The notes under the pieces: model-generated
Seen by the model: the letters and a program-made list of their open reading frames with translations, nothing else
What the model was told of the DNA's origin: nothing
Databases searched by the model: none
Part shown: positions 8,520 through 56,597 of the stretch, one piece after another
Position numbering within the stretch: position 1 is the first letter of the stretch
Layout of the letters: the number at the start of each line of letters is the position of its first letter
Translations under genes and position numbers: made by a program
Origin: an uncultured Planctomycetales bacterium
Lineage (GTDB): Bacteria > Omnitrophota > Gorgyraeia > Zapsychrales > CAYRXT01
Length of the DNA stretch: 64,000 bases
Direction: 5' to 3'
Assembly: GCA_964428315.1 (NCBI GenBank)
Contig: CAYRXT010000003.1
Coordinates: 4,151-68,150 of the forward strand

Positions 8520-8523
<4 letters not shown>

Positions 8524-36342: not shown

Positions 36343-36352
36343 AATCCTCTCC

Positions 36353-41854: not shown

Positions 41855-43134
41855 CAGGACCGGAAAACGGCCTTAAGCGGAACTCCCTTAATCATTTTTT
41901 TCACACTATTAGTCTCCAGCGCTTTCTTTATGATCCCGAGCGTCTGCCGGTAAACACGCAGAGTGATTTTGATCTCCCTGTCAGTATGACGGTAACAGAC
42001 AAGATGGTTTCCCGTAAAGAGAAGACCACGCTTGATGCATTCCTGCTGGAAAAGGCTCTTCACGAGAAGATCTTCGCGCCCCTGCCTGTCGTAAAAGAAA
42101 ATCTTGTTTCTGGGGGCAAACCCCACACATCGCGTCAAGGAACCGAGCCCAAGTTCCCCGGCCAGTTTATTGTAACCGCTCTGCAGTTGTTCCCCTTGTC
42201 TCCACAAACGGGGAATCACTCTTTGCTTCTTGATCTCCCTAATCGTTGCCAGCGCCGCCGCAATGGAAACAATCTCGCCGCCAAACGTAAAGGAAAAAAA
42301 GACCTTATCGAAGTCCTTCATGATATCCCTTTTTCCCACGACCGCTGAAATGGGAAAACCGTTTCCCATGGCCTTTCCGAAACAGGCCAGATCCGGGACA
42401 ACGCCGAAATATTCCTGGGCTCCGCCGAGGGTAAAGCGGAACCCCGTCACGATTTCGTCAAAAATCAGCAAGGCGCCGTTGCCGTGTGCCAGCCGCTTCA
42501 CCTTGCGCAGGAAGCCGTTCTTCGGAGATTCCATGCCCACAGGCTCCATAATCACACAGGCGATCTCTCCTTTGTTTTTGTCAAAAATCTTTTTCAGTCC
42601 ACTCAAATCATTATATTGAAAAGGCAGGGTCAGTTTTTTCGTGCATTCCGGGACACCTCTATTCCAGGCTGTCGTCGCGATATACCAGTCCTGCCAACCA
42701 TGGTATCCGCAGCAGGCCACCTTTTCTCTCCCGGTAACCGCCCGCGCCAGCCTGACCGCTCCAGAGGTCGCGTCCGAACCGTTTTTTCCGAAACGCGCCA
42801 TCTGCGCGCAGGGGATGATGTCACACAAAACACGGGCCAGCTCATGCTCCAGTGGATGCGGAAGCGTAAATGTCGTTCCTTTCCCCAGAACACCTTTAAC
42901 GGCAGACGTGACCGCGGGATGATTATGTCCCAATATGACCGGGCCCAGGGCCATCAGGTAATCGATATATCTGTTGCCGTCCACGTCCCAGACGTAACAG
43001 CCTTTTCCTTTTTTGATAAAGGCCGGGGCAACACCCTCTACAAACTGGGACGACCCCTTGCTAAGAGTCTGCGTCGCGCCGGGGATCCGTTGGCGGGCCT
43101 TCTTCAACAACCGTTTCGACTGGGACATTTGCAT
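41854..43134 (-). CDS. class III PLP aminotransferase (glutamate-1-semialdehyde 2,1-aminomutase-like)
   Basis: ...YIDYLMALGPVILGHNHP...FDEIVTGFRFTLGGAQEYFGVVPDLACFGKAMGNGFP... is the GSA-AT/class III fold with the Lys in FGKAMG. Confidence 0.75.
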   Translation of the reverse strand: MQMSQSKRLLKKARQRIPGATQTLSKGSSQFVEGVAPAFIKKGKGCYVWDVDGNRYIDYLMALGPVILGHNHPAVTSAVKGVLGKGTTFTLPHPLEHELARVLCDIIPCAQMARFGKNGSDATSGAVRLARAVTGREKVACCGYHGWQDWYIATTAWNRGVPECTKKLTLPFQYNDLSGLKKIFDKNKGEIACVIMEPVGMESPKNGFLRKVKRLAHGNGALLIFDEIVTGFRFTLGGAQEYFGVVPDLACFGKAMGNGFPISAVVGKRDIMKDFDKVFFSFTFGGEIVSIAAALATIREIKKQRVIPRLWRQGEQLQSGYNKLAGELGLGSLTRCVGFAPRNKIFFYDRQGREDLLVKSLFQQECIKRGLLFTGNHLVCYRHTDREIKITLRVYRQTLGIIKKALETNSVKKMIKGVPLKAVFRS

Positions 43135-43165
43135 CGATCAAATCTCTCATACACTCATCGGTGTC

Positions 43166-43891
43166 TTACCACTTGACTATCAGGATATCCTCACGCGTCT
43201 TGTTCATCGGCAACCCGTCTCTCTGGGGTAAAAGATACGTCTCACAGCCCATGCCGCGGTACCTCTGCAAAATGGAAAACACCACGCTCTCGTCGAATTC
43301 TCCCTCTTTAAAGGTATTCCATTCGACCTTCGGGGGTTCCGCGGTCTTCGCCCATTCCATGTGCAAACGCCTGCCGGCCTCCGAGCCGAGGAAGCGCCTC
43401 TTTTTCGTGATATTGGGCAGGTCTCCCAAAAGAAGCCGGCCACCGTTCTTCAAAAGCGAAACGGCCTTGTCCAGGAATCGGAACATGTTACCGTGGACAA
43501 AGACGATCTGGATCACGCTGTAAACGATGACATAATCGATGCCGTCCTTGTATTCTTCAATAAAGTCAGAACATATCGGAAACTCGCACGAGATTTTTTC
43601 AAGAAAGCTCTCATCGGGAAGCTGATCGAGCATCTCCTTGGAATCGATCAGGATAAGAGGATTCTTGTTGACCCGTGCGAAGTCTATCAGGTCGCGCGCC
43701 GGCGTACTGCATCCGCAGCCGATATCGCAGATGACGCCGCCCGGTTGGATATCCAGTTTGTCACGGACATCGGGAACAATATTCTTCTCTTTGTTCTCTG
43801 GCCCAACATGGATCTGCGCGCGTCCGACCTTTTCAAAGGCGCGCAGTTTTTCGTCCCTGGCTTTCCTGCGAAAATCGTCAAACGTCAGCAT
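43166..43891 (-). CDS. class I SAM-dependent methyltransferase
   Basis: VICDIGCGCS Gly-rich motif I and ...LKNGGRLLLGD... 241 aa. Confidence 0.6.
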   Translation of the reverse strand: MLTFDDFRRKARDEKLRAFEKVGRAQIHVGPENKEKNIVPDVRDKLDIQPGGVICDIGCGCSTPARDLIDFARVNKNPLILIDSKEMLDQLPDESFLEKISCEFPICSDFIEEYKDGIDYVIVYSVIQIVFVHGNMFRFLDKAVSLLKNGGRLLLGDLPNITKKRRFLGSEAGRRLHMEWAKTAEPPKVEWNTFKEGEFDESVVFSILQRYRGMGCETYLLPQRDGLPMNKTREDILIVKW

Positions 43892-44943
43892 GGCATGGCC
43901 TCCATGACATTGTTTTTGAACGTGTCCGCGTCCTTCAAAAAAAAGGCCTTGTCGAAATATTTAACGCCGCGGAACAACGGCACCATCTTCGTCCCGAACC
44001 CCCGTTTGAAATGGCTGATGTTGATCTGTTTGGCGTCCAGGTAGCTTCCGAATCCGTCGACCCGGTTGAACCCGCACGGCCTCGCTAATTGCAAAAATTC
44101 AAAACCCCGGTTCTTATAATACTGGACCGCGCGCCAGATCAGGACATGGTAGACCGGGAGGCTCCCGTATTCGGGATCATCCGAACCGCTGGCGTACACC
44201 GCGGTCCTGCCCTGATGAAAAAAATACAGGAAACCGATGAAGCGCCGTTTTTTCTTCAGCCCGAAAAGGCTGGCCTCGTCGTTCTTCAACATGGCGAACT
44301 GCAGGTCAAAGGTTTTTTTGCCGCGCGTGACCCGGCCCGCGCATTGCCGGTGAAGCTTCCGGTAGGTCTCATGGACCTTATAATCCGGTTTGTGGAAGTC
44401 AAACAGGACAACCTGCAAGGCTTTGTCGTCCATGATCTTTTTGATACTGCGCCGGTGGTTCTCCCGGAACGACCGGAAAATGCTCTGGCCGCCGGGCCGC
44501 AGGTCGATGATTCCGTCCGTGGAAGAGGTGTCCATATAGCCGAACGCGAGCAGATTGTTGAACTTCTCGCGGTATTCCATGACCAGAGGATCCAGATAAA
44601 AACGGATAACCGCGATCCTGTGCTCCCGGGCCAGCCCGTCAATAAAAGCGAACATCTCCTTTTCCACTTTTTCGTCCGACGCCAGCGGGGCGGGGACATA
44701 ACCTCCGGAGGCCGTCATGCATCGGCGTCCCATGCGTTCCTCGACCGGAAGAAAACAGATGCCGACCGGATCCTTGCCGCGCAGGGCCACAAAGCTGAGA
44801 TCATCAACCATTGCCGTGGAATAGGTCAGCATATAATCCAGACAGCGGGGGAGGTAACGATAACTGGCAGGATAACCGTCGAGAAAGGCCTTCCATTTCT
44901 TGACGAACTCCTTCTCGTTATCTTTTCTAAACAAGATATTCAT
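43885..44943 (-). CDS. FemAB/BioF2-like (Acetyltransf_6) GNAT-fold acyl/aminoacyl transferase
   Basis: ...HRRSIKKIMDDKALQVVLFD... and ...FIGFLYFFHQGRTAVYASGSDDPEYGSLPVYHVLIWRAVQYYKNRGFEFLQL... match the FemAB-family C-terminal pattern. Confidence 0.5.
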   Translation of the reverse strand: MNILFRKDNEKEFVKKWKAFLDGYPASYRYLPRCLDYMLTYSTAMVDDLSFVALRGKDPVGICFLPVEERMGRRCMTASGGYVPAPLASDEKVEKEMFAFIDGLAREHRIAVIRFYLDPLVMEYREKFNNLLAFGYMDTSSTDGIIDLRPGGQSIFRSFRENHRRSIKKIMDDKALQVVLFDFHKPDYKVHETYRKLHRQCAGRVTRGKKTFDLQFAMLKNDEASLFGLKKKRRFIGFLYFFHQGRTAVYASGSDDPEYGSLPVYHVLIWRAVQYYKNRGFEFLQLARPCGFNRVDGFGSYLDAKQINISHFKRGFGTKMVPLFRGVKYFDKAFFLKDADTFKNNVMEAMPC

Positions 44944-46261
44944 AATGAACAGTTTTGTTCGATGACAGTTCTTTCTTGTTTTCGTAAACCTTACAGAAGG
45001 CACGAACAATATCTTTTATATCACTTTTTTTCAGTGGATAACGGCAAAGCCCGGTCGTTATCAACGCTTCCGCGTGCATCTTTTCGGCGACAGGACAGAT
45101 ACCCGGAGAATAGTCCACACGACCTTTATAATAAGGCGGCCGGAACGGATAGCCTTGCCGGCCGAGTGCGGTCTTTTTTTGATACATGGGTTCGAAATAA
45201 ATCGGCCGGACGTAGCCTTCGCCAAGGGGTATGCCTTCCGCCCTGACAGCTTTTACAAAAATACCGCGTGAAAAACCGGCAGTTTCTGCCTTCAATTTTA
45301 TGGGGAAAGAAAAATACACGTGACGGTTGCCCGGCCGAATTAAGGGTAATTCCAGTCCCGGCAATCCCGCTTTTTTCAAGCCGTCTCGCAAGGTGTCGGC
45401 CAATTCAATGCGGTATTCTGTCAAATACTCAAGCTTGTCGAACTGCGCAATACCCACTGCCGCTTCCAGTTCCGTCATTCGGTAATTCCAACCCAGCATA
45501 TTGACGATATCGTTCATCTTCATCTTTCCGACCACAACCTCTCCGTGGTTACGGATCAGACGCGCCTTCTCGGCGATCCTCGCATCATTTGTCATGATCA
45601 TGCCGCCCTCACCGGTCGTCATCGTCTTTTGCTGGTTAAAACTGAAAACACCGGCGGTGCCGATCGTTCCTACGTAGCGGCCTTTATAAGTTGCCGCCGG
45701 CGACTGCGCGCAGTCCTCGATAAGCGCCAGTCTGTACCGCCTTGCCAAGGTCTTGAGCCCGGACATATCGGCGGCCTGTCCGAAGAGATGCACCACAACA
45801 ATCGCCCTGGTGTATTTCGTAATCTTCTTTCTCACGCATTCGGGATCCAGACCGAAGATGTCCTCCTGTATATCGGCAAAAACCGGAATGCCGCCGGTCA
45901 TAACAATGGCGGAGGCCGAAGCGGACATCGTATAGGGCGTGACAATCACCTCGTCGCCGGGGCCGACCCCGGCGGCGGCCAGCGCGGCATGCAGACCAGC
46001 CGTCGCCGAATTGACCGCCACGGCATATTGTATTTCGAAATACCGGCAAAAGCGCCTCTCCAGTTCCCGAACCTTCGGTCCTCCGAGAAACGGCTCACCG
46101 GGCGAAGCCAGAAATCCGGACAAAATCCCGCTTTTCAGGACGTCCCTGACCTGGCGCAACTCCTCTTTGCCGAGGACAGGATGAGCGGAAAACGGTTTCA
46201 GTCGAACCTTTTTTCCCCCGAACAAGGCCAATGCCGGGCGTTTCTTAGCAGCTGAGCTCAT
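44927..46261 (-). CDS. DegT/DnrJ/EryC1/StrS family PLP sugar aminotransferase
   Basis: ...AVAVNSATAGLHAAL...VIVTPYTMSAS...FSFNQQKTMTTGEGG... places the conserved Lys in FNQQK. Confidence 0.8.
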   Translation of the reverse strand: MSSAAKKRPALALFGGKKVRLKPFSAHPVLGKEELRQVRDVLKSGILSGFLASPGEPFLGGPKVRELERRFCRYFEIQYAVAVNSATAGLHAALAAAGVGPGDEVIVTPYTMSASASAIVMTGGIPVFADIQEDIFGLDPECVRKKITKYTRAIVVVHLFGQAADMSGLKTLARRYRLALIEDCAQSPAATYKGRYVGTIGTAGVFSFNQQKTMTTGEGGMIMTNDARIAEKARLIRNHGEVVVGKMKMNDIVNMLGWNYRMTELEAAVGIAQFDKLEYLTEYRIELADTLRDGLKKAGLPGLELPLIRPGNRHVYFSFPIKLKAETAGFSRGIFVKAVRAEGIPLGEGYVRPIYFEPMYQKKTALGRQGYPFRPPYYKGRVDYSPGICPVAEKMHAEALITTGLCRYPLKKSDIKDIVRAFCKVYENKKELSSNKTVHYEYLV

Positions 46262-47253
46262 CTCAATCTGATCCTCCTTTGCTTCCGGGCCGAAAGGACC
46301 AAGGCCTCGACAACCCTTAGTGATTTTAAAGCATCACGCCCCGGTGAAAGGGGTTTCTCTCTTTTCTCCAGACACCGGATGATATGATCGACTCCCTGCT
46401 CCAGGGAGATCGGCCCGCGGCGATTCTTAAAGGGCAAGCCCCCTCTTGCCGAAAGTCTTCTGAGTTTCAATAACGGGTTGATATCAGACGACTCAAAATA
46501 TTCAACCGTCTGGTCAAACCGGACGCGCGCGCGGGATCCCACGATATCGATTTCAAGAATGATAAAATTTCTGTCGTCGCAGGCTTTTAACGCGACATCG
46601 GGTCCCCCTCGAAATCGAATAACCCCGTCGAGATTCGGATCACCCCTCCTGCGCGAAACGTTCCAGCTGGGATGAGCCAAAACCTCAACCGGCTCTCCGA
46701 AAAGAAATCTTAAATAATCCACAACATGGATCCCCGTGTTAAAAATGCCTCGGGTGTAGTAGACATTCACCTGCTGAATGCGCCCCACTTCCAGACGGCG
46801 GATCTTCGCAGCAAGCTCACGGTGAAAGGGATCAAAACGACGCTGATGGTTGACCATTAACAAAACCCGTTTACGGGCGCAGGCCTTCACGATAATCTCG
46901 GCGTCGCGTGAAATCGAAGCAATCGGCTTTTCGCAAAAAATCGCCTTAACCGGATAGTGGAGCACGGCCCTGATGACATCCAGATGAGTTGGCGACGGCG
47001 TACATACACTCACAATATCCACCGCTTCGTTTTCCATCATTTTCCCAATGTCCTTATAGGCGGAGGGCACGCGCCACTTTTTTTGAAAGGCCCGGCGTCT
47101 GGAGGCGTTGGGTTCGCAAACAGCTGCCAGTTCCGTGCGCAGATGCTTCGTGTACGCGCCGGCATGGGTGAGGACGAAAGGTCCACTGGTACCGGTGTCA
47201 AACCCGCCTGCGATCCGTCCGCAGCCAATGATGCCTGTCTTATAGATTCTCAT
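46258..47253 (-). CDS. Gfo/Idh/MocA family NAD-dependent sugar oxidoreductase (WbpB-like)
   Basis: MRIYKTGIIGCGRIAGG... Rossmann N-terminus with ...EKPIA... Co-occurs with a DegT aminotransferase, as in oxidise-then-transaminate pairs. Confidence 0.7.
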   Translation of the reverse strand: MRIYKTGIIGCGRIAGGFDTGTSGPFVLTHAGAYTKHLRTELAAVCEPNASRRRAFQKKWRVPSAYKDIGKMMENEAVDIVSVCTPSPTHLDVIRAVLHYPVKAIFCEKPIASISRDAEIIVKACARKRVLLMVNHQRRFDPFHRELAAKIRRLEVGRIQQVNVYYTRGIFNTGIHVVDYLRFLFGEPVEVLAHPSWNVSRRRGDPNLDGVIRFRGGPDVALKACDDRNFIILEIDIVGSRARVRFDQTVEYFESSDINPLLKLRRLSARGGLPFKNRRGPISLEQGVDHIIRCLEKREKPLSPGRDALKSLRVVEALVLSARKQRRIRLR

Positions 47254-47792
47254 TTCCTCCGGTATTCCCTGCGCAGGATGCTCATCCGCAGGGCGTCATA
47301 AAAACGGTTATTGCGAAAAATCTCATCCCGCAGGACGCCCTCTTTGACAAAACCAGCCTTCTCGTAAGTCTTCACGGCAGCCAAATAGTCGGCGTTCACC
47401 CCCAGAAATATCTTATGGAAGTTCAGCTTCTCGAATCCGTACTGGACCATCAGCCTGGTCGCTTCGGTGGCAAAGCCCTTGTTCCATTTTGTTTTTTCAC
47501 CGATGAAGATCCTGTACTCGGCGGCATGCGTGACGGCGCGGATCCCGTAAAAACCGCACCATCCGACAGGCCTGGCGGTCTTCTTGTCCACGATCGTCAT
47601 GGGAATGGTTTTCGTGTCGCGTATCTCCTTCTGCCACTGTTCGTCCAAGACTTCAAGATGCGTCGGCCTTTCCCCCATGATCATAAATTTCGTTACCTCG
47701 GGGTCATTAAGCCAGTGCAAGATAAATGAAAGGTCCTCCCGGGTCGTTCCGCGCAGATCCAACCTCTTCCCCCCCAAAAATGGTGAATTCAT
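47250..47792 (-). CDS. GNAT family N-acetyltransferase (PseH-like candidate)
   Basis: RimJ/RimL-like GNAT core: ...VGWCGFYGI...WNKGFATEATRLMVQYGFEKLNFHKIFLGVNADYLAAVKTYEKAGF... Start at M17 abuts the upstream stop. Confidence 0.6.
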   Translation of the reverse strand: MNSPFLGGKRLDLRGTTREDLSFILHWLNDPEVTKFMIMGERPTHLEVLDEQWQKEIRDTKTIPMTIVDKKTARPVGWCGFYGIRAVTHAAEYRIFIGEKTKWNKGFATEATRLMVQYGFEKLNFHKIFLGVNADYLAAVKTYEKAGFVKEGVLRDEIFRNNRFYDALRMSILRREYRRK

Positions 47793-48559
47793 GAATCGGC
47801 CTCCTTTTTTGTGCTCGACGGCCTCAGACGCGTGTTCCATCGCTCATTGATTCTTTTAAGTTCCGGCCGCCTGTCCAGCAGCCGGCAAATATCTTCCAGA
47901 AGAAACATCTCCTTTTGCGGATAAAGGGCCTCGATGATCTGCCCGATGAGTTGATAATCCTCTTCGTAATCAAGAGTCAAACGAAGATCCGAAAGATCCC
48001 AGTCACAGCGCGGTCCGTCAACGCGGAACCTCTGCGGATGCCTCAAAACATAAGCCCAGGCATCGGCCCGCCACCTCTTTTTTTTCACTTCCCTATCGAG
48101 CCTCTCCAAGGTTGAAAGGGGCATCACGGCCACATCCATGCCATCGGGAAAACCCCGTGCACTTCCCGTATTCACATAGTCCAACTCCGACTCTCGATCA
48201 CAATAAAAGCGAATCGCTGAATCAATGATACGCGGATCCGTTAACGGACAATCAGCGCCGATCCGCACAATAACATTCCCCTGAAATCGCCTTGCTGCTT
48301 CCAGGTTGCGACTGATAAGATCCGCTTCACTGCCGGCATAAAAGTCGACCCCTTCCGCCTGAGCAAATTCCACAATGGGCGTGTTGGCAGGCGTATCAGC
48401 GGTTGCGATAACAATTTTGTCGATGAATTTGGCATGAGCCATTCGCCGGTATTGATACCATAACAAAGCCCTGTCCAGCACCCTCATAAGCGACTTTCCT
48501 CTAAGTCGGCTCGAGTTAAATCGCGCCTGAATAATTCCTAATCGCATATCCGAACCCAT
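47789..48559 (-). CDS. CMP-sugar cytidylyltransferase (SpsF/NeuA/PseF family)
   Basis: LGIIQARFNSSRLRGKSL is the CTP_transf_3 P-loop-like N-terminus. 256 aa. Confidence 0.6.
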   Translation of the reverse strand: MGSDMRLGIIQARFNSSRLRGKSLMRVLDRALLWYQYRRMAHAKFIDKIVIATADTPANTPIVEFAQAEGVDFYAGSEADLISRNLEAARRFQGNVIVRIGADCPLTDPRIIDSAIRFYCDRESELDYVNTGSARGFPDGMDVAVMPLSTLERLDREVKKKRWRADAWAYVLRHPQRFRVDGPRCDWDLSDLRLTLDYEEDYQLIGQIIEALYPQKEMFLLEDICRLLDRRPELKRINERWNTRLRPSSTKKEADS

Positions 48560-50292
48560 CGTTTTAGCCTGTTGGACTGCTTCATCTTGTGCAGAATGTG
48601 TTGGATGCGGATACCTTTTTCTAAATCAATCGGGGAATCGGCGTCCCCGTTGACACACTGCACAAAGCATGCGATCTCGCGTTTATATATAGCGTCGATC
48701 TCCTTGGCCCTGCAAAACACTTGCCATCGGTTCTTTTTCACTTCATAGACCTTAACAACACCTTTCAAAAGATCACAAACAATCGCACCCTTTTCACCGA
48801 TTACATCCATTGTCCGCGTTGTGGGTCTCATAATGTAATCCGCGTGGCACTGCATAATAAAATTTTCATGGAATTTAATCAACAACTCGGCAGTATCTTC
48901 CACATCCGTTTTCAAAGAGGTGCGCCTATCCGCCCAACAAAATATTTCTTTCACCTCTCCGAACAAAAACCCTGCATTGAACACGTGATGGCTCAATGTG
49001 TCCAAAATCACGCCGCCTCCAAGGATCCTCCGAGCCCCGTACTCTGTGCTATAATCCTGCGTGGGGTGCCTGTCCGGAAGATAAGAACCGGCAAATGTCT
49101 TGGCTGAAATCAGAGGACCGATAATCCCTGATTGTAATATTTTTTTAACAGTGTTAAGACACTGGCTGAACGCGTTATTATAACCTATAAAAGTAACCAG
49201 CCGCTTCTTTCCGACAATATCGAGAAGACTGTCCAGGCCCCTCATATTATGGGAAAGCGGCTTTTCGATAAAAAGATGACAGCCTTGCTTCGCGGCTTTC
49301 AAGGCGTAGGGGACATGCAGAGAAGTCGGCGTCGTAATGAATACGGCGTCAGGTTTTGATTCCCAGCAGGCCTTCAACTCCGTCAAACATGCAATGTTGG
49401 AAGATATCTTTCTAACCTCAACAAATCGTGAAGGATCAATATCGTAAGCCAAAAGACGTCCGGCCTTCTGGGCCAGCAAATTCTTCAAGTGCCTCTGTCC
49501 GATGGATCCGCACCCGATGACAAGGAACGTCTTGATCCTTCTTTTGGCCTTCTGGATAAAATCCGGATTTCTCTTCTGCGCGGACATCTCTTTAAACATC
49601 GCTTTATGCCGGGAATAATACCGGACGATGTCCTTCAAGCCGAAATTTTCGTTGGCCTTCTTCATGTCCGCGACCATAATGTTGATGGTCTTGAGGTCAA
49701 CGGGATAATCAACAGTCAAATGGATATGGGAATAGTCTTTGTTCAACCGCAATCTGTTGATCTTGAACTCCTTCTGCTGTCTCATCCACCTGTTGGGGAA
49801 TTCGCGGAAAAAAGGATCCTCCAGATTCTTGGCGAGATAACGCAGCAGTGCCCCGGAATAGATTTCCGCGTTGAGCCCGAAGGGAAATGTCAGCGGGATG
49901 TTATTGGTTGTGTACGGCTTTTTGTTCTTCAGGCTTTTGAGAACCATGCGGTCGATCCAGACAGGATCAATCAAAGGACAGTCTCCCCACACGCGCACCA
50001 CCCAGTCCGCCTTAAACTTCCGGCACGCGCCGTCGAGGCGGCCGACGATGTCCTCGTTCGCGCCCCGGGAATACGGGATCTTTTTCCTCTTCAGAAAGGC
50101 CGCCAGCTTATCGTCGCTGGAACGGCGGGTCGTCGCGACACAAACCTGGTCGACCAGGCGGCACTTTTTCAGCCGCCCAGCAATGAATTCGACCATCGGT
50201 TTGCCGCCGATCTTCTTAAGCGGCTTGCCGGGAAGACGGCTGGACCCCATCCTGGACTGAATGAGCGCTATGACCTTTGCCTTCTTCTTCAT
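48538..50292 (-). CDS. fusion protein: SpsF-like cytidylyltransferase (N-terminal) plus Gfo/Idh/MocA oxidoreductase (C-terminal)
   Basis: N-terminus KVIALIQSRMGSSRLPGKPL (cytidylyltransferase). C-terminal half IKTFLVIGCGSIGQRHL...IEKPLS... (Gfo/Idh/MocA Rossmann plus EKP motif). Confidence 0.65.
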   Translation of the reverse strand: MKKKAKVIALIQSRMGSSRLPGKPLKKIGGKPMVEFIAGRLKKCRLVDQVCVATTRRSSDDKLAAFLKRKKIPYSRGANEDIVGRLDGACRKFKADWVVRVWGDCPLIDPVWIDRMVLKSLKNKKPYTTNNIPLTFPFGLNAEIYSGALLRYLAKNLEDPFFREFPNRWMRQQKEFKINRLRLNKDYSHIHLTVDYPVDLKTINIMVADMKKANENFGLKDIVRYYSRHKAMFKEMSAQKRNPDFIQKAKRRIKTFLVIGCGSIGQRHLKNLLAQKAGRLLAYDIDPSRFVEVRKISSNIACLTELKACWESKPDAVFITTPTSLHVPYALKAAKQGCHLFIEKPLSHNMRGLDSLLDIVGKKRLVTFIGYNNAFSQCLNTVKKILQSGIIGPLISAKTFAGSYLPDRHPTQDYSTEYGARRILGGGVILDTLSHHVFNAGFLFGEVKEIFCWADRRTSLKTDVEDTAELLIKFHENFIMQCHADYIMRPTTRTMDVIGEKGAIVCDLLKGVVKVYEVKKNRWQVFCRAKEIDAIYKREIACFVQCVNGDADSPIDLEKGIRIQHILHKMKQSNRLKRWVRICD

Positions 50293-51464
50293 GAACTTTT
50301 TAACTCCTTCCTCAAACTCTTGATGACATGACGAACCTGCCTGGTGTCCATCCGGGGATGCAACGGGATTGAGACCGTCCCGGCATAATGGCCCTCGGCA
50401 CAGGGAAAGTCCTTGGGGGACAAACGGAAATATTTCCTATAAAACGGCTGACGGTAAAGCGGTATGTAATGGACCTGTGTCTGGACTCCCTTTCTCTGGA
50501 GCCGTTCCATAAACTTTTTCCTCGTCGTTTTCCTTTTCGCGAAATCAACACGCAAGACGTACAGATGCCAGCCGTGCCTTTTCCCCTGCCCTCCGTCGTC
50601 CGGCAGGACCAGTCCGTCAATATCCTGTAAGGCCTCCGAATAGGCCTTCGCGATCTCTGTCCGCTTCGCGATAAAGCCAACCGCCTTTTTGAGCTGGCTC
50701 AGCCCCAGTGCGCACTGAACATCGGTGATGCGGTAATTGAACCCCAGCTCCCGCATCTCGTGATACCACGACCCAACCGAATGCGCCATGCCGGGGGTCT
50801 TGGTAACGCCGTGCGTCCGCAAAGCGCGAAGGCGTTCATAAAAGCCTTTATCATTCGTCGTGATCATGCCGCCTTCACCGGTGGTGATGGTCTTCAGGGG
50901 ATGGAAGCTGAAAACCGTCATGGCCGAGTGCCGGCAGGACCCGACCTTAACCCGGCGCCCCTGATGTCTGTACGCCGCGCCGAGCGCGTGGCAGGCATCC
51001 TCGATGACAGTAAGTTTCCCGCGTTTTGCCGCCGCGGCGATGCGCGGCATATCACAGGGCAGTCCGGCGAAATGGACGGGCAGGACCGCCTTTGTCCTTT
51101 GGTTTATCCTTTTTTCCAGTTCTCCGGGATCGATGTTTCCCGTCCGCAAATCGATATCGGCGAACACCGGACGCCCGCCGGCATAGACAACGGCATTGGC
51201 CGTGGCCATGAAGGTGACAGGCGAGGTGACGGCCTCATCGCCTTTTTTGAGGCCTGCCGCCAGGCAGGCCAGATGGAGCGCCGCCGTCCCGCTCGAGACC
51301 GCCACGGCATAACGGCTCCCGCAATAGCGCGCGAAGGCCTTTTCAAATTCTGCGACCTTCGGCCCCTGTGTCAGCCAGTCTGATTTAAGGACCCGGACGA
51401 CTTCCCGGATATCGTGATCATCAATCGACTGCCTTCCATAGGTAATGCCTTTCTTTGTCCCCAT
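50289..51464 (-). CDS. pseC: UDP-4-amino-4,6-dideoxy-N-acetyl-beta-L-altrosamine transaminase (PseC-like DegT aminotransferase)
   Basis: ITYGRQSIDDHDIREVVRVLKSDWLTQGPKVAEFEKAFARYCGSRYAVAVSSGTAALH is the PseC-type N-terminus. The Lys is in ...FSFHPLKTITTGEGG. Confidence 0.75.
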   Translation of the reverse strand: MGTKKGITYGRQSIDDHDIREVVRVLKSDWLTQGPKVAEFEKAFARYCGSRYAVAVSSGTAALHLACLAAGLKKGDEAVTSPVTFMATANAVVYAGGRPVFADIDLRTGNIDPGELEKRINQRTKAVLPVHFAGLPCDMPRIAAAAKRGKLTVIEDACHALGAAYRHQGRRVKVGSCRHSAMTVFSFHPLKTITTGEGGMITTNDKGFYERLRALRTHGVTKTPGMAHSVGSWYHEMRELGFNYRITDVQCALGLSQLKKAVGFIAKRTEIAKAYSEALQDIDGLVLPDDGGQGKRHGWHLYVLRVDFAKRKTTRKKFMERLQRKGVQTQVHYIPLYRQPFYRKYFRLSPKDFPCAEGHYAGTVSIPLHPRMDTRQVRHVIKSLRKELKSS

Positions 51465-51466
51465 CC

Positions 51467-52432
51467 TTATTCTTCCTCTTTTGCGATCTTCTGCAATGCC
51501 TCGACAGACAACCATTGCGTGTTGTTGTCACTGCGGTATCCCTCAAAATGCTCGTCCAGAGGCCTGCCTCCGTTTTTGCGTTCCTTGTGGCGGACGACAA
51601 ACGGATACGTGATGAAACGGTCTTCATACTCATACGTGTAGATGCCGTCGTCTTTGGTCACGAGGATCTCGTGAAGTTTTTCCCCGGCGCGGATTCCGAT
51701 AATGTCCTGTTTGCATTCCGGGCAGATGGCGCGCGCCAGATCGGTAATCTTCATGCTGGGGATCTTGGGGATAAACACCTCGCCTCCCTGCATGTCGTCC
51801 ATACATTTCATGACGAATTCAACGCCCCGCTGGAGGGTGATCCAGAAACGCGTCATCCGCTCGTCCGTGATGGGCACCGCGCCCTTTTGGCGGCATTCCA
51901 CGAAAAACGGCACCACGCTTCCCCGCGAACCGAAGACGTTGCCGTAACGGGCCACGCTGAATTTCGTCCCAAAAGGAGAATAATTGTTGGCCGCCACGAA
52001 CATCTTTTCCATGCACAGCTTCGTCGCCCCGTAGAGGTTGATGGGATTCGCAGCCTTGTCCGTGCTCAGGGCGATCAGCTTTTTCACCCCGCAGTCTATG
52101 GCCGTGTTGATCACGTTCTCCGCGCCGATCACGTTGGTCTTGACGGCCTCGAACGGGTTGTATTCCGCCGTCGGGACGATCTTCAGGGCCGCGGCATGGA
52201 CAACGATGTCTACGCCGTTGAACGCCCGTCGAAGCCGCTCGGGATCCCTCACGTCACCGATGAAATAGCGGATGGCGGGGTGAGCGAAATGCTGGCTCAT
52301 CTCGTATTGCTTCATCTCGTCGCGGCTGAAGATGATGAGTTTTTTCGGCCGATGCCTCGAGAGCAGGGTCTCGGTAAATTTTTTGCCGAACGACCCCGTA
52401 CCGCCCGTAACCAAAATGGTCTTTCCGTCCAT
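51467..52432 (-). CDS. pseB: UDP-N-acetylglucosamine 4,6-dehydratase (inverting), PseB/FlaA1-like
   Basis: ILVTGGTGSFGKKF, ...STDKAANPINLYGATK... About 320 aa, PseB/CapD short form. Confidence 0.8.
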   Translation of the reverse strand: MDGKTILVTGGTGSFGKKFTETLLSRHRPKKLIIFSRDEMKQYEMSQHFAHPAIRYFIGDVRDPERLRRAFNGVDIVVHAAALKIVPTAEYNPFEAVKTNVIGAENVINTAIDCGVKKLIALSTDKAANPINLYGATKLCMEKMFVAANNYSPFGTKFSVARYGNVFGSRGSVVPFFVECRQKGAVPITDERMTRFWITLQRGVEFVMKCMDDMQGGEVFIPKIPSMKITDLARAICPECKQDIIGIRAGEKLHEILVTKDDGIYTYEYEDRFITYPFVVRHKERKNGGRPLDEHFEGYRSDNNTQWLSVEALQKIAKEEE

Positions 52433-52456
52433 GCGTTCTCCTTCAGTTCTTTTCCG

Positions 52457-54277
52457 TCATTTTTGCAGTGAATCCATCAGATAAAATTTTCCCTTCCTGG
52501 CCAGAAGCTCCTGATAGGTGCCGGCCTCGCAGATCCGTCCGTCTTCAAGGACATAGATCACATCCGCGGTTTTTACCGTCGAAAGCCGGTGGGCCACCAT
52601 GACAATGGTCAGATGGTCCTTGAGTGACTGTATCGTATCCTGGATCATGCGTTCCGATTCCGAATCGAGTTCGCTGGTGGCCTCGTCCAGTATCAGCAGT
52701 TTCGGTTGTGTCAAAAGGGCTCTCGCGATGGCCACGCGCTGGCGCTGTCCTCCGGAAAGTTTGATGCCATTTTCCCCGATCACCGTGTCCCACCTCCTCG
52801 GCCACTGTCCGACAAAATCCAGGATATGGGCCCTTCGCCCGGTCTCTTCCAACAACGCCTCATCGGCAACCGGATTGGCCACGGTCAGGTTTTCCCTGAG
52901 CGTGCCGTCCAGAAGGGACGGCTGCTGCGTCACGTAAGCGATCTTCTTGCGTAACGACCGCTTGTCCAGATCACCATGGGGCACCTCCCCGTAATAGATC
53001 GCACCTTCCTGCGGCGAGATAAGACGGAGAATCAGATCAAGCACCGTTGATTTTCCGGCTCCTGATCCCCCTACAATGGCCACGGTCGTACGCGGTTCGA
53101 CCACCATGTTCAGCCCGTCCAGGACCCTGCCGCCGGCCGGATAAGAAAAAACCACGTCGGTGAAACGGATCGGCTTGTCTTCGCAAAAGGACTGTCCGCC
53201 GTTGTCCTCCTGATGCGCCTCGAGTTCGCCCAGGTGTCTCTGCAGGGAACGGTGCATCGGCATGGTGCTGTCGAGAACGGCGTAGATCGTCGCCAGGGCC
53301 GTGAACTGGGGCGCGATCCGGAAAAAGATCAGCAGGATTACCAACAGCGTCGCGTAATCCAATGACAGCGCCTCATGGAAAAATATGATAAGTAAAAGGA
53401 AGGCCGACGTGGCGACCATGCTCCACATCCGCTGGAATTCCATGTGCACATACTGCCTCTTGTAGGACCGGCTGACCTGCAGGATCAAATCCAGTATCTT
53501 CTTAATGAACGCCCCCCCCAGAAGCGACGTCTTGAAAAATTTTCTGTTCTGCTGGAAACCCGTCATCACGTTGGAGAAGGCCGTCAGCTGGAGATTGTAT
53601 CTGTCCGCTATACGGTAAACGAAGCTTGAATTGATGATGCTGACCAGGCCTATAATGGCGTAAATTCCCAGGGCCAGAAGGGTAACCGGAAAAGATAGTG
53701 TCATCGCTATGGCCAGAAAGACAAAGACCTGGAAAAAGTTGATGAGGACCCGCTGGGCGCTCAGGTGGGCCTCGCTCGCCAGCTGGGCCTCCTGGATCAC
53801 CGCGTAAAAGACGCCGCCCGAGCGGCTCTCGGTCAGCCATAACCAGTCGGCCGTTAAATACCGGTTGAATATCCTTTCCCGGTAGGATCTCAGGAGCCTT
53901 TCTCTGGCAAAGGCCGCGATCAGGCTCGAGACGCTCACCAGCACCTGGCCCGCGATGATAAAAATTCCCGCCGATACCAGCAGGACATGAAAAGACGGCT
54001 CGATACCCATAGCCTGCAGGGGCTTGACGACGAACGGCAGCAGCCCGCCGCCGCCATCCGCCGTTTGACCGCCCCGCATGAATTCCAGGACCGGGATCAG
54101 GACCGGGAGCCCCACGAAACTCGCCGCGCCGCTGACAGCCTGCGTCAAGAGGATCCACCCGAAATACGGCGTCGAAACAATAAGCCGAGATATATATCTC
54201 AGCTTTCTCCAGACCTTATTCAGCATTTCCAGGCACCACATTTTTTCCGAAGGGGATTCTGTTCCACAACCGCTCAT
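52457..54277 (-). CDS. ABC exporter, fused TMD-NBD (MsbA/PglK/Wzk-like lipid-linked glycan flippase candidate)
   Basis: Six-TM N-terminal half. Walker A GGSGAGKST, ABC signature LSGGQRQRVAIARAL, Walker B LILDEATSELD. True start may be M13 or M18 (54241 or 54226). Confidence 0.85.
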   Translation of the reverse strand: MSGCGTESPSEKMWCLEMLNKVWRKLRYISRLIVSTPYFGWILLTQAVSGAASFVGLPVLIPVLEFMRGGQTADGGGGLLPFVVKPLQAMGIEPSFHVLLVSAGIFIIAGQVLVSVSSLIAAFARERLLRSYRERIFNRYLTADWLWLTESRSGGVFYAVIQEAQLASEAHLSAQRVLINFFQVFVFLAIAMTLSFPVTLLALGIYAIIGLVSIINSSFVYRIADRYNLQLTAFSNVMTGFQQNRKFFKTSLLGGAFIKKILDLILQVSRSYKRQYVHMEFQRMWSMVATSAFLLLIIFFHEALSLDYATLLVILLIFFRIAPQFTALATIYAVLDSTMPMHRSLQRHLGELEAHQEDNGGQSFCEDKPIRFTDVVFSYPAGGRVLDGLNMVVEPRTTVAIVGGSGAGKSTVLDLILRLISPQEGAIYYGEVPHGDLDKRSLRKKIAYVTQQPSLLDGTLRENLTVANPVADEALLEETGRRAHILDFVGQWPRRWDTVIGENGIKLSGGQRQRVAIARALLTQPKLLILDEATSELDSESERMIQDTIQSLKDHLTIVMVAHRLSTVKTADVIYVLEDGRICEAGTYQELLARKGKFYLMDSLQK

Positions 54278-54443
54278 GGACGAAATAAAGAACCATTTTC
54301 ACAAGGGCCTCCACCCCTCCGACAGAGACGGCCAAAACGATCTTCCCGGTAAAAATATATACGATCAATGTCGTGGTCAACGTGGCCAGGCACCGCCAGG
54401 ACAGGGCCTTCAAGAGAGAACGGCGTTTTCTTTCGCTAAACAT
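54216..54443 (-). CDS. DUF2061 small membrane protein
   Basis: ...RKRRSLLKALSWRCLATLTTTLIVYIFTG...GVEALVKMVLYFVHERLWNRI... matches the DUF2061 consensus. Start at M41 of the ORF-track translation. Confidence 0.5.
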   Translation of the reverse strand: MFSERKRRSLLKALSWRCLATLTTTLIVYIFTGKIVLAVSVGGVEALVKMVLYFVHERLWNRIPFGKNVVPGNAE

Positions 54444-54454
54444 ATGACCTCGCT

Positions 54455-55282
54455 TTATTGATAAAATCCCCGCACATAATTCATTTTCATCAACACCAGG
54501 GCCCAAAGTGAACCCGTAATATCCCGAAATAACCGAACCTTGGAGCGCCGGTCGTTTCGCCACAGCACCGGGACCTCGCAGATATTCAGACGGTGAAGCA
54601 GCGCGATATAAATCAGTTCCGTGTCAAAGGCCCAGCTGCAGATCCTCTGCCGAGAAAAAATAATCTCCGCCGCCTGCCGGGAATACATTTTAAAACCGCA
54701 GGTGAAATCGCTGATGCGCGAACCGGTCATCCACTGCGAGAGCCGCCGGAATCCCTCACCGAAAAATCTGCGCGCCCAGGGCTGTTTCTCCTGATAGGAA
54801 TCGCTTCTCATCCGCCGGCTTCCGATAATGACATCACAGTGATCTTCATCGGCCTTCTTCATAAATTCTTCAACCGCCCGCAGATCCGTCGAAAGATCAA
54901 CATCCATGAACAAACGGTAATCCCCCCCGGCCCGCTGCATCCCGTGACGGATCGCGTACCCCTTGCCGCGGTTCTGTTCATATCCGGCAACCCGGACCGT
55001 ATCCGACTCCAGACTTTGGGCAATCTCCCTCGTCCTGTCGTTCGAGCCATCGTCCACAATGATGATCTCATAACCCATATCCAGCGCATCCAGCTTTTCC
55101 TGTAGTGAGGCCACGTTCCTGGATAATGTCATCTCCTCATTGAAAGCGGGTAAAATCACAGACAGCAATGTTCTCCCTCCGTCACTCCGGTCAAGTATGC
55201 CCAGCGGTCCCGGCCTTCCTTCTCCTCCAGCCGATCCCTTGCGCAATAACGGAATCCCAGCACCATCCCACAAAAAAGGCAT
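54455..55282 (-). CDS. GT2 polyprenyl-phosphate sugar synthase-like glycosyltransferase
   Basis: ...LLSVILPAFNEEMTL...IIVDDGSNDRT...MDVDLSTD... True start is probably downstream of the ORF-track M (a non-ATG start is likely), because the 5' end overlaps the upstream GT-C gene by ~90 nt. Confidence 0.7.
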   Translation of the reverse strand: MPFLWDGAGIPLLRKGSAGGEGRPGPLGILDRSDGGRTLLSVILPAFNEEMTLSRNVASLQEKLDALDMGYEIIIVDDGSNDRTREIAQSLESDTVRVAGYEQNRGKGYAIRHGMQRAGGDYRLFMDVDLSTDLRAVEEFMKKADEDHCDVIIGSRRMRSDSYQEKQPWARRFFGEGFRRLSQWMTGSRISDFTCGFKMYSRQAAEIIFSRQRICSWAFDTELIYIALLHRLNICEVPVLWRNDRRSKVRLFRDITGSLWALVLMKMNYVRGFYQ

Positions 55283-56558: not shown

Positions 56559-56578
56559 GTTTATTGTCTTAAAAATAA

Positions 56579-56595
56579 TGTTCAATGATTGAACA
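56579..56595. promoter_or_regulatory. perfect 7-3-7 palindrome tgttcaa-tga-ttgaaca overlapping the predicted +1 of the sigma70 promoter (candidate operator)
   Basis: Direct reading: tgttcaatgattgaaca is its own reverse complement. It lies 3-16 nt downstream of the -10 hexamer. Confidence 0.5.
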
Positions 56596-56597
56596 AC

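Follow-up and report, generated by a model that had tools for sequence, protein, structure and literature searches.

The question raised by this locus is whether a cytidylyltransferase (CT) and a dehydrogenase that are read in one frame make up a single enzyme and, if so, which step of sugar biosynthesis that enzyme would serve. The whole stretch of DNA analysed (64,000 nt, referred to here as the window) carries the two domains and a second CT gene as follows:

48538..50292 (-), fusion ORF, 584 aa, SpsF-type CT joined to a Gfo/Idh/MocA dehydrogenase
49567..50292 (-), CT domain of the fusion (SpsFa), aa 1-242, SpsF/COG1861 branch of CTP_transf_3
49537..49566 (-), junction, aa 243-252, natural CT tail running straight into the dehydrogenase N-terminus with zero added linker
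48541..49536 (-), dehydrogenase domain of the fusion (GFO1), aa 253-584, Gfo/Idh/MocA type with a GCGSIG Rossmann motif
47789..48559 (-), stand-alone CT (SpsFb), 256 aa, CTP_transf_3 match of 60.5 bits

The preliminary description read the fusion as one unbroken frame, and this is borne out. The ORF starts with ATG and runs for 584 codons with no internal stop, and the junction DNA holds no continuation in another frame. The CT tail before the junction (...RNPDFIQKAKRR) is complete, ending in the alignment where stand-alone relatives naturally end, and the residues that follow (IKTF-LVIGCGSIG) correspond to the natural start of GFO1 proteins that stand alone (MKI[I/L]VIGCGSIG). An AlphaFold2 model shows two well-folded domains (mean pLDDT 91.6), with disorder confined to aa 243-249 (pLDDT <50). 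The Logan assembly of run SRR7048225 contains the same DNA, with 0 mismatches in 21,755 bp (window 38538..60292, junction included); the two assemblies were probably made from the same reads by different assemblers, and their agreement does not amount to independent data. That the true genome has two separate genes, divided by a stop codon or frameshift, is very improbable. One base change at the junction could make or remove a stop, and the two assemblies probably share their reads, but the DNA is identical between them across 21.7 kb, both halves lie in one frame, and the same CT-GFO architecture is found in about eight other unrelated clusters. The ORF is most likely a genuine two-domain enzyme, with predicted catalysis, of a pathway for nonulosonates (NulO) of the pseudaminic acid (Pse) type.

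This pathway assignment comes from the surrounding genes:

51467..52432 (-), PseB, UDP-GlcNAc 4,6-dehydratase (inverting), TIGR03589 at 498.2 bits (cut-off 407.75)
50289..51515 (-), PseC aminotransferase, TIGR03588 at 475.4 bits (cut-off 423.5)
47250..47840 (-), PseH-like GNAT N-acetyltransferase, Acetyltransf_3 at 78.7 bits
46258..47253 (-), second Gfo/Idh/MocA dehydrogenase (GFO2), recognised by Pfam and paired with DegT2
44927..46261 (-), second DegT-family aminotransferase (DegT2), Pfam match of 317.4 bits
41854..43134 (-), class-III (GSA-aminomutase-like) aminotransferase (AT3), Pfam Aminotran_3 at 183.8 bits
41024..41854 (-), AAC(3)-like N-acetyltransferase, Antibiotic_NAT at 90.7 bits
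34137..35189 (-), PseG, UDP-sugar hydrolase, TIGR03590 at 184.5 bits (cut-off 153.55)
33235..34140 (-), NeuB-family nonulosonate synthase, 301 aa, Pfam NeuB at 272.5 bits

The PseC stop and the start of the fusion overlap by 4 bp. Several of the neighbours fall short of the equivalog thresholds: the GNAT protein scores 53.7 bits against TIGR03585 (cut-off 93.1), DegT2 gives 235 bits with the PseC model, AT3 gives 445.8 bits with NF004856 (cut-off 486) and the AAC(3)-like protein 75.4 bits with NF033082, all below cut-off. The synthase scores 250 bits as PseI and 288 bits as NeuB, both under the respective cut-offs, and mostly lacks the SAF domain; a frameshifted remainder of its gene was looked for and none was found. 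GFO2 is only about 20% identical to GFO1.

The fused CT domain matches Pfam CTP_transf_3 (PF02348) at 83.4 bits (cut-off 22.6) over aa 8-130, an alignment limited to the N-terminal part (half) of the profile in SpsFa and SpsFb alike, and it matches the solved cytidylyltransferase PDB 6OEW over its full length (E 4e-26, aa 6-231). Across 205 family members, 25 alignment columns reach a conservation of 90% or more; SpsFa retains all of them, and the CTP-binding loop QxRxxSxRLPGK, D104 (in DCP), E143, R163-E164, D195 and D199 are kept. The fusion is not a member of the PseF equivalog (TIGR03584, 21.6 bits, cut-off 205.7), and SpsFa would be at most a functional analogue of PseF from a different branch of the superfamily. 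An otherwise complete pse cluster in which a fused domain is the sole CT is seen in one of the related loci (L002) and on Pseudosulfitobacter pSMR1-1, and the fused CT should therefore supply the PseF function there. SpsFa is predicted to be probably the main CMP-nonulosonate synthetase of the cluster.

The second SpsF-like gene reported next to the fusion is confirmed by its profile match. It is 42% identical to the SpsF of locus L006 but only 25% to SpsFa, and by both identity and neighbour-joining tree it is orthologous to the CT encoded next after GFO1 in loci L006 and L010. A gene caller places its start 24 codons later (232 aa), which drops the CTP-binding loop; the 256-aa form was kept because the upstream codons encode this conserved loop. 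SpsFb deviates at four of the 25 conserved positions (P20R, D59N, E144A and E165A), and is possibly drifting or starting to decay. Since the losses are in SpsFb and none is in SpsFa, the pattern suggests that the fused copy has taken over. Two other views of the CT pair were rejected. The copies are not recent duplicates, being 25% identical and of separate lineages, and SpsFa is not a degenerate binding domain, as it keeps every conserved position while the deviations are in the stand-alone copy.

The C-terminal half of the fusion matches GFO_IDH_MocA (PF01408, 67.6 bits against a cut-off of 24, aa 256-371) and, over aa 381-581, both GFO_IDH_MocA_C3 (PF22725, 63.2 against 27) and GFO_IDH_MocA_C (PF02894, 40.7 against 22.9). 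The pairing of an SpsF-like with a Gfo/Idh/MocA domain, as first described, therefore holds for both halves. G260-C-G-S-I-G265, E343-K344-P345, D431 and H435 (the Asp/His pair of the C-terminal domain) fall in nearly invariant alignment columns, and a conserved Asp closing the second strand, D284, makes NAD a likelier cofactor than NADP. GFO1 is 45-50% identical to stand-alone proteins of 323-330 aa located between pseC and an SpsF gene, and among the top 50 Foldseek matches the solved members of the family have TM-scores of 0.73-0.89 (normalised to target length).

The two halves of the fusion appear to have different histories. SpsFa is the positional ortholog of the sole CT in simpler clusters that do not have GFO1, and is 44% identical to the single CT following PseC in L090 and L091. 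The L091 cluster is colinear with the window but has no GFO1, SpsFb or AT3; its dehydrogenase and DegT protein are 45% and 65% identical to GFO2 and DegT2, respectively. In L006 and L010, on the other hand, GFO1 is followed by the ortholog of SpsFb. The window thus looks like a mosaic into which GFO1 and the stand-alone SpsFb were inserted. In this scenario a backbone of one type (PseC-CT-GNAT-GFO2-DegT2...) would have acquired GFO1 and SpsFb from a cluster of another type, and the backbone CT, having lost its stop codon, would read into GFO1, placing the fusion at the seam. Because the fused CT is of another lineage than the CT usually coupled to GFO1, the fusion may be a side effect of the insertion. 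The same point qualifies the coupling of activation and oxidation that had been proposed for this polypeptide: the fusion is intact, but it does not join GFO1 to its usual CT.

It could then be asked whether the fusion has any function as such. If stop-codon loss at the seam were all that happened, the halves would act independently with zero channelling, the CT half serving the backbone pathway and GFO1 working with SpsFb and AT3. Simple loss of a stop would leave what is seen at the junction, a complete CT tail and a complete GFO1 head with no linker added; SpsFa belongs to a CT lineage that occurs without GFO1, and the architecture is absent from relatives above 50% identity. Moreover, four CT-GFO fusions do not cluster but are scattered in the CT tree, so that such fusions arise repeatedly and cheaply. 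Even so, a purely incidental fusion is judged fairly unlikely, as colinear CT-GFO fusions have been retained in about nine distinct clusters at 50% identity, where they co-occur with AT3, and as it is SpsFb that has lost conserved residues and not SpsFa, suggesting a takeover by the fused CT. This alternative bears on channelling only, and is compatible with a reaction order of CT, GFO1 and AT3.

The preliminary description called the joining of the two activities in one polypeptide unusual, which overstates the case. When the best 150 representatives are clustered at 50% identity, at least about 20 of the clusters hold CT and GFO domains fused in one order or the other, and a CT-oxidoreductase fusion, EpaA, has already been characterised genetically (PMC12053666). 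Relatives of GFO1 were found in at least 566 species-level genomes of bacteria and archaea. Together with an SpsF-type CT and AT3 they form a module that is present in many phyla, with the proteins fused as GFO-CT, GFO-CT-AT3, CT-AT3 or, less often, CT-GFO. The best 120 homologs include 19 GFO-CT-AT3, 18 GFO-CT and four CT-GFO fusions, and 80 loci from GTDB species include 11 fusions of CT to AT3, two of all three proteins and one of GFO1 to CT. Where at least 5 kb is available on either side of GFO1 (46 loci), NeuB is found in 45, an SpsF-type CT in 33 and AT3 in 25. All three components are present in the NulO cluster of the window, where the module is orthologous, gene for gene, to that of locus L006. 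Compared with the corresponding domains of fusion proteins, identities are 31-41% for GFO1, 29-44% for the CTs and 52-57% for AT3, the last figure referring to complete GFO-CT-AT3 triple fusions; the AT3 of L006 is 65% identical. AT3 of the window is thus orthologous to the aminotransferase part of these triple fusions, and is the inferred partner of GFO1. The module is not mentioned in a Thaumarchaeota paper, a Clostridium Pse paper or the SugarBase preprint. Its cultured carriers include Halorussus aquaticus, Pseudosulfitobacter pseudonitzschiae and group I Aeromonas.

From domains, motifs, gene context, orthology and recurrent fusion we infer the substrates, the timing at the CMP level, the oxidation site and the amination as follows. 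PseB, PseC, the PseH-like GNAT, PseG and the NeuB-family synthase would build the nine-carbon sugar, which the SpsF-type domain would join to CTP to give CMP-NulO. GFO1, with NAD+, would turn a secondary hydroxyl of CMP-NulO into a ketone, most likely at C8 with C4 as the alternative, and AT3 would replace the ketone by an amine, yielding an extra-aminated sugar of the pseudaminic type. A neighbouring acyltransferase may acylate the new amine, for which the AAC(3)-like protein is a candidate; its gene lies directly downstream of AT3, with its start abutting the AT3 stop. We give this reading, including the origin of the fusion by stop loss at an insertion seam, a probability of about 0.5. Chemistry at the level of the CMP-sugar is favoured because GFO1 is repeatedly fused to CT, and CT to AT3. 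The earlier suggestion that CMP-NulO is oxidised to a keto sugar for an aminotransferase fits these fusions and also the published model for ElaABC (PMC13656337). An aminotransferase as the next enzyme likewise stands, but the fusions point to the class-III enzyme and not to the nearby DegT proteins.

The solved relatives of AT3 include FumI and GenB C-6' aminotransferases, and the aminopentol aminotransferase 6hbs and the C-6' aminotransferase 7lm0/7lld presumably aminate a carbon adjoining a terminal methyl, an arrangement chemically like that of C8 and C9 in a 9-deoxy NulO. A role as aminomutase, in which AT3 would exchange an adjacent amine and ketone like GSA aminomutase, was also considered, but nothing in particular speaks for it. 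A sugar of the expected kind, 8-amino-3,5,7,8,9-pentadeoxy-NulO, occurs naturally in the O-antigen of Tenacibaculum maritimum (PMC3210612); neither the serotyping paper nor a literature search gave gene-level information or assigned genes for it. It is possible, if somewhat doubtful, that the module is the pathway to 8-amino (5,7,8-triamino-3,5,7,8,9-pentadeoxy) NulOs, with the fused enzyme passing CMP-Pse straight on for oxidation. Given the second dehydrogenase/aminotransferase pair, GFO2 and DegT2, the window might even aminate two positions, C8 and C4.

Several observations count against the preferred order of activation, oxidation and amination. Fusions elsewhere tie GFO1 to CTs of the SpsFb kind and not to SpsFa, and three loci (L034, L041 and L056) have GFO1, GFO2 and DegT2 and lack AT3. 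No NCBIfam equivalog cut-off is nearly reached by GFO1 either, the best match being IolG (TIGR04380, 102.7 bits against 355), with UDP-GlcNAc 3-dehydrogenase (NF040723, 87.8 against 450) among the next. In Aeromonas and Pseudosulfitobacter its place is taken by an aldo/keto reductase, an enzyme type that usually reduces rather than oxidises.

Two other reaction schemes were considered. In one, GFO1 would act early, oxidising a UDP-hexose intermediate (for example at C3, as do WlbA/WbpB or GnnA) for amination by AT3, and its link to CT would reflect gene order alone. The profile matches of GFO1 to solved structures agree with this, since, after the uncharacterised Thermotoga dehydrogenase 3ezy, the best characterised ones are WlbA (3q2i, 3q2k) and 7bvj, which we take to be UDP-sugar 3-dehydrogenases partnered with aminotransferases. 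UDP-GlcNAc 3-dehydrogenase is among the best NCBIfam matches and the fusion gene sits directly behind pseC, but all family scores are far under cut-off and the repeated physical fusions of GFO1 to CT and of CT to AT3 favour the CMP level. Carbon 3 of the hexose also becomes C6 of the NulO, whose hydroxyl closes the pyranose ring, and a 3-amino hexose would probably not yield a normal NulO. Early action is distinctly unlikely. In the other scheme, GFO1 would oxidise C8 (or C4) of CMP-NulO and a second reductase, such as GFO2, would return the hydride from the opposite face so that the pseudaminic-type sugar takes its 8-epi or 4-epi form, in the manner of ElaABC/EpaAB, with AT3 acting in another step. 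Among NulO systems of this architecture, genetic or structural support exists only for ElaA with ElaC (an SDR) and for EpaA (CT-AKR) with EpaB (an SDR), both of which act as C8 epimerases; clusters L034, L041 and L056, with GFO1 and GFO2 but no AT3, would also fit. Epimerisation is nevertheless unlikely here: GFO1 is often fused or adjacent to AT3, as in the 19 triple fusions and the 25 of 46 well-flanked loci given above, no SDR gene adjoins the fusion, and GFO2 is consistently trailed by its own aminotransferase, DegT2.

Nonulosonic acids cover flagella, capsules and O-antigens, and affect recognition by the immune system and by phages, and to our knowledge their late modifications are poorly understood. 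The wider point is therefore the module, a widespread predicted set of three enzymes (dehydrogenase, SpsF-type CT and class-III aminotransferase) that is fused in almost all pairwise combinations and, as a proposal from comparative data, offers a concrete route to extra-aminated pseudaminic-type sugars. The fusion itself is of modest interest, as a mosaic cluster in which the activating enzyme of one module is welded to the oxidase of another.

The CT family of the window has a studied member in SpsF of Bacillus subtilis (COG1861 branch of CTP_transf_3, like both window CTs), which is also encoded in a NulO cluster but is stand-alone, serves legionaminic acid (Leg) synthesis and has no attached dehydrogenase; spsF mutants produce Leg but fail to transfer it, as expected if CMP activation is lost (PMC7439481). 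The canonical, NeuA-like PseF (TIGR03584) shares the predicted reaction of SpsFa (CTP + Pse to CMP-Pse) but is of another superfamily branch. The oxidation and amination proposed here have a parallel in WlbA/WbpB with WlbC/WbpE, and in GnnA with GnnB, where a Gfo/Idh/MocA enzyme oxidises a hydroxyl of a nucleotide sugar and an aminotransferase makes the amine. Those substrates are, however, UDP-hexoses oxidised at C3, the aminotransferases are of the DegT type, and no cytidylyltransferase is involved. Group I Aeromonas polar-flagellin islands have the order pseB pseC [aldo/keto reductase] pseF [class-III aminotransferase] pseG pseH pseI, and their flagellin sugar is an uncharacterised 'Pse derivative' (PMC7874193). 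Like the window, these islands and Pseudosulfitobacter pSMR1-1 place an oxidoreductase, a CT and a class-III aminotransferase between pseC and pseG (CT and aminotransferase being fused in pSMR1-1), but the oxidoreductase is an AKR, a non-homologous replacement of GFO1, and is not fused to the CT. No predicted product could be matched to the 376 Da masses of Aeromonas Pse derivatives.

Nearest to the window are two Acinetobacter systems, EpaA with EpaB and ElaABC. EpaA and EpaB of A. baumannii prophages convert Pse5Ac7Ac to 8-epi-Pse5Ac7Ac, the epimerisation having been shown by NMR (PMC12053666). EpaA, like the window fusion, is a single polypeptide with CTP_transf_3 at the N-terminus and an NAD(P)-dependent oxidoreductase at the C-terminus, and it acts on pseudaminic acid, but its redox domain is an aldo/keto reductase (PF00248), whereas that of the window is Gfo/Idh/MocA with no AKR match. 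A tblastn search for EpaA-like fusions in phage records gave only weak matches (20-30% identity) to the dehydrogenase half. The partner of EpaA is an SDR and the outcome epimerisation; in the window the likely partner is AT3 and the predicted outcome amination. ElaB/ElaA/ElaC of Acinetobacter baumannii KL49 carry out CMP-legionaminic acid synthesis and C8 epimerisation, in the proposed order of CT, oxidation of CMP-Leg at C8 by a Gfo/Idh/MocA enzyme, and an enzyme acting on the 8-keto sugar (PMC13656337). Both loci thus have a CT and a Gfo/Idh/MocA dehydrogenase within a NulO cluster. The likeness of GFO1 to ElaA is one of family and description: the solved structures listed as matches to GFO1 are generic family members (3ezy, WlbA, GenD2/KanD2, YjhC/NanOx and inositol dehydrogenases), and ElaA was not recognisable among the listed PDB matches from sequence, profile and Foldseek searches. 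The ElaABC proteins are separate where CT and GFO1 are fused, the sugar is legionaminic rather than of the pseudaminic type, and the third component is an SDR reductase that gives an epimer, whereas the window has a class-III aminotransferase and no SDR next to the fusion. The pairing of CT and dehydrogenase, which recurs in many uncultured microbes, resembles these known systems, and what is new in the window is a variant and not a kind.

The open reading frame at nt 48538–50292 (minus strand) comprises 584 codons, starts with ATG and contains no internal stop codons. Pfam searches place a cytidylyltransferase (CT) domain (CTP_transf_3) at aa 8–130, with the N- and C-terminal parts of a Gfo/Idh/MocA oxidoreductase following at aa 256–581, all well over the gathering scores. 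The protein belongs to the Gfo/Idh/MocA family and, through its CT domain, to the SpsF branch of CTP_transf_3. The PseF, IolG and UDP-GlcNAc 3-dehydrogenase equivalogs do not include it, every score there being far under the cut-off. Motifs are intact in the CT domain (SpsFa) and in the dehydrogenase half (GFO1; GCGSIG, E343-K344-P345, D431 and H435). Tail and head alignments and the DNA sequence show that a complete, natural CT tail directly abuts the natural N-terminus of GFO1, with no added linker, and an AlphaFold2 model (mean pLDDT 91.6) gives two folded domains with disorder confined to aa 243–249. It is very unlikely that the fusion arose as an assembly artefact, since the same DNA is found without mismatch over 21,755 bp in the Logan assembly of SRR7048225 (probably built from the same reads as the present assembly) and the CT-GFO architecture also occurs in other clusters. 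The preliminary description had claimed a CT-oxidoreductase fusion in a single ORF beside a second, stand-alone CT. The first claim is borne out by the uninterrupted frame (neither stop nor frameshift between the domains), the Gfo/Idh/MocA profile matches of the C-terminal half, the second assembly and the structural model, and the second by the CTP_transf_3 match of the neighbouring gene.

On the minus strand from about nt 650 to 58150, all long ORFs with a Pfam match are polysaccharide-synthesis genes, which gives the region the look of a single large polysaccharide locus. The genes around the fusion form a nonulosonate (NulO) cluster of the pseudaminic-acid type, rich in tailoring genes, as follows.

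Genes around the fusion, in transcription order
(-), ABC transporter
(-), PseB (TIGR03589, 498 bits, cut-off 408)
(-), PseC (TIGR03588, 475 bits, cut-off 424)
48538–50292 (-), CT-GFO1 fusion (Pfam)
47789–48559 (-), SpsFb, stand-alone CT, 256 aa (Pfam CTP_transf_3)
(-), PseH-like GNAT
44927–47253 (-), GFO2 (second Gfo/Idh/MocA protein), then DegT2 aminotransferase
(-), FemAB-like protein, then methyltransferase
41854–43134 (-), AT3, class-III, GSA-aminomutase-like aminotransferase
(-), AAC(3)-like N-acetyltransferase
39276–41027 (-), 583-aa protein, no Pfam/NCBIfam match
(-), DUF4910 (DUF4910/M28-like) protein, then 203-aa unknown protein
36353–37279 (-), FabH-like protein
36085–36342 (-), acyl carrier protein (ACP), 85 aa, DSL motif (TIGR00517, 36 bits, under cut-off)
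35186–36088 (-), LpxD/LpxA-like hexapeptide acyltransferase
(-), PseG (TIGR03590, 184.5 bits, cut-off 153.6)
33235–34140 (-), NeuB-family synthase, 301 aa
31598–33265 (-), 555-aa protein, no Pfam/NCBIfam match

The FabH-ACP-acyltransferase trio (nt 35186–37279), also present in L091, a comparison locus from another genome, probably attaches a short acyl group, e.g. 3-hydroxybutyryl, to a sugar amine. The NeuB-family synthase is missing most of its C-terminal SAF domain and scores under the cut-offs for both PseI (250, cut-off 340) and NeuB (288, cut-off 400); a tblastn search downstream of nt 33235–34140 did not find a frameshifted remainder of the domain, and the 3' end of the gene overlaps the next by 31 bp. 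Several clusters encode, after NeuB, large proteins (~530–585 aa) without Pfam/NCBIfam matches, with examples in L002 (16373–18127) and L091 (19079–20665); these are candidate NulO transferases or polymerases. The 555-aa and 583-aa proteins of the window are paralogs, to which the L091 protein is 54% and 31% identical, respectively. The region at nt 654–31533 (minus strand) encodes three Wzy_C-like membrane proteins (4321–6387, 8520–9845 and 19105–21534), many glycosyltransferases and a 6-deoxyhexose branch with a C-methyltransferase (28456–29709), an RmlC-like epimerase and a CmcI-like O-methyltransferase.

The two SpsF-type copies are the only CTs among the window ORFs scanned, and they differ in conservation. 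Across 205 aligned SpsF-family sequences, 25 columns are at least 90% conserved; SpsFa retains all 25 positions, whereas SpsFb departs at four (P20R in the CTP loop, D59N, E144A and E165A), a deviation at the 95th percentile; both glutamates are kept in its orthologs in loci L006 and L010. The start chosen by the gene caller for SpsFb lies 24 codons downstream and would delete the CTP-binding loop; it is preceded by AGAGGA, a product of the P-to-R codon change. These sequence comparisons point to the fused CT as the main activating enzyme, with SpsFb being redundant, impaired or re-specialised, possibly a decaying paralog. In L002 and on plasmid pSMR1-1 a fused CT domain is the sole CT of an otherwise complete pse cluster, and in those clusters it should therefore supply the PseF function. 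Such a role for an SpsF-type CT fits the genetics of Bacillus subtilis, where spsF mutants make legionaminic acid (Leg) that is not transferred (PMC7439481).

SpsFa and SpsFb share only 25% identity and have different relatives. By tree and alignments, SpsFb falls with the CTs located after GFO1 in L006 and L010 (42–47% identity). Each gene of the window from PseB to AT3 has its ortholog in L006, where GFO1 is a separate protein of 323 aa. The closer relatives of SpsFa are stand-alone proteins of about 256–260 aa (41–46% identity). In L090 and L091 an SpsFa-type CT is the sole CT, its start overlaps the PseC stop by 4 bp as in the window, and GNAT, GFO2 and DegT2 follow. L091 remains colinear with the window through a 201-aa protein, FabH, ACP, the hexapeptide acyltransferase, PseG, NeuB and the homolog of the 555-aa protein, and is without GFO1, SpsFb and the AT3 block. 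That block (nt 37906–45009, minus strand; FemAB-like, methyltransferase, AT3, AAC(3)-like, 583-aa unknown and DUF4910/M28-like) looks like an inserted tailoring cassette. The simplest reading is that a PseC-CT-GNAT-GFO2-DegT2 backbone would have gained GFO1 with its SpsFb-like CT, plus the AT3-containing block, after which the backbone CT would have lost its stop codon and read into GFO1; the stop loss is supported by the linker-free junction. The GFO2/DegT2 pair, which gives the window two oxidation/amination pairs besides PseB/PseC, is retained in the order CT-GNAT-GFO2-DegT2 by simpler clusters of the pse type without GFO1 and AT3, and is found in L090, L091, L006, L008 and L010. Decreases in G+C to about 0.46–0.48 at 24–32 kb and 36–40 kb suggest further mosaicism. 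The other CT-GFO fusions examined (L008 and L009) also lie beside a second stand-alone CT and AT3, and the four CT-GFO fusions are scattered in the CT tree and so had independent origins. The fusion may also be incidental, without channelling, as the SpsFa lineage normally operates without GFO1.

Among the best 120 homologs of the fusion (90% clustering), 80 are stand-alone GFO1-type dehydrogenases of ~329 aa, the closest relatives of the C-terminal half (45–50% identity); GFO-CT fusions account for 18 and GFO-CT-AT3 triple fusions (~1016 aa) for 19, and only four have the CT-GFO order of the window. A full HMMER search against 1.84 billion representatives clustered at 50% identity listed, within the best 150, about nine clusters with colinear CT-GFO and a dozen or more with the reverse order, none more than 33% identical to the fusion over its full length. 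With a GFO1 profile, relatives were confirmed at 566 or more matched stretches (566 of the 600 matches listed) in GTDB genomes, one per species, and the best 80 loci all belong to uncultured lineages of many bacterial and archaeal phyla. GFO1 is flanked by 5 kb or more on either side at 46 loci, where it has nearby a NeuB-family synthase (45), an SpsF-type CT (33) and AT3 (25), typically in the order PseB/PseC/GFO1/CT/AT3/PseG/NeuB. Fusions in the GTDB loci join CT to AT3 (11; L011, L013, L016, L021, L022, L028, L030, L040, L057, L082 and L087), GFO1 to CT and AT3 (two), GFO1 to CT (one) and GNAT to GFO1 (two; L077, a Methanosarcinales MAG, and L085, an Atribacterota MAG). These recurrent fusions, and the 52–57% identity of the window AT3 to the aminotransferase domain of the triple fusions, argue by the gene-fusion criterion that GFO1, SpsF-type CT and AT3 are a functional unit. 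Cultured carriers are Halorussus aquaticus XZYJ18 (plasmid; GFO, CT and class-III aminotransferase adjoining NeuB, with a DUF4910 gene also near), Pseudosulfitobacter pseudonitzschiae SMR1 (pSMR1-1), Azospirillum brasilense (p5; CT, GFO and DegT) and Aeromonas hydrophila of group I. NCBI labels the Pseudosulfitobacter CT-aminotransferase fusion as a plain class-III aminotransferase, and stand-alone CTs often as 'glycosyltransferase family protein'.

The data show directly that the motifs of both domains are intact, that the genes lie in a cluster of the pse type and that fusions link GFO1, CT and AT3. In the mechanism inferred as most likely, the CT domain would form a CMP-NulO, GFO1 would oxidise a secondary hydroxyl of it to a ketone, and AT3 would aminate the ketone; the amine so formed may be capped by an acyltransferase encoded nearby. 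After the uncharacterised 3ezy, the best profile matches of GFO1 to characterised structures are WlbA (3q2i, 3q2k) and 7bvj, which are UDP-sugar 3-dehydrogenases feeding aminotransferases. Besides GSA aminomutases, solved relatives of AT3 include an aminopentol aminotransferase (6hbs) and a C-6' aminotransferase (7lm0/7lld), both aminating the carbon beside a terminal methyl, the situation of C8/C9 in a 9-deoxy NulO. The O-antigen of Tenacibaculum maritimum contains an 8-amino-3,5,7,8,9-pentadeoxy-NulO (PMC3210612). Given this sugar and the AT3 relatives, C8 is the preferred site of oxidation and amination, with C4 as the alternative. Epimerisation rather than amination is possible, as is action of GFO1 on a UDP-hexose, because L034, L041 and L056 carry GFO1, GFO2 and DegT2 without AT3, and an aldo/keto reductase takes the place of GFO1 in Aeromonas group I islands and in Pseudosulfitobacter.

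The specific fusion is a modest finding; it is the GFO1/CT/class-III aminotransferase module behind it that merits experiment. No paper assigning a function to this module was found in the literature, its genes being merely listed in reports on Aeromonas (PMC7874193) and Legionella. The best precedent for the proposed mechanism, by analogy, is ElaABC of Acinetobacter baumannii, for which crystal structures, docking and knock-outs underlie a model (PMC13656337). In it, ElaB makes CMP-Leg5,7Ac2, the Gfo/Idh/MocA protein ElaA oxidises this CMP-sugar at C8, and the resulting 8-keto sugar is reduced by the SDR ElaC, giving the epimer. ElaB and ElaA are likened to the window fusion in proposed action but are separate proteins, while the fused enzyme would have a pseudaminic-type substrate and an aminotransferase partner. 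EpaA of A. baumannii prophages, a CT-aldo/keto-reductase fusion shown by NMR to turn Pse5Ac7Ac into the 8-epimer in concert with the SDR EpaB (PMC12053666), resembles the window fusion in architecture but differs in its redox fold.
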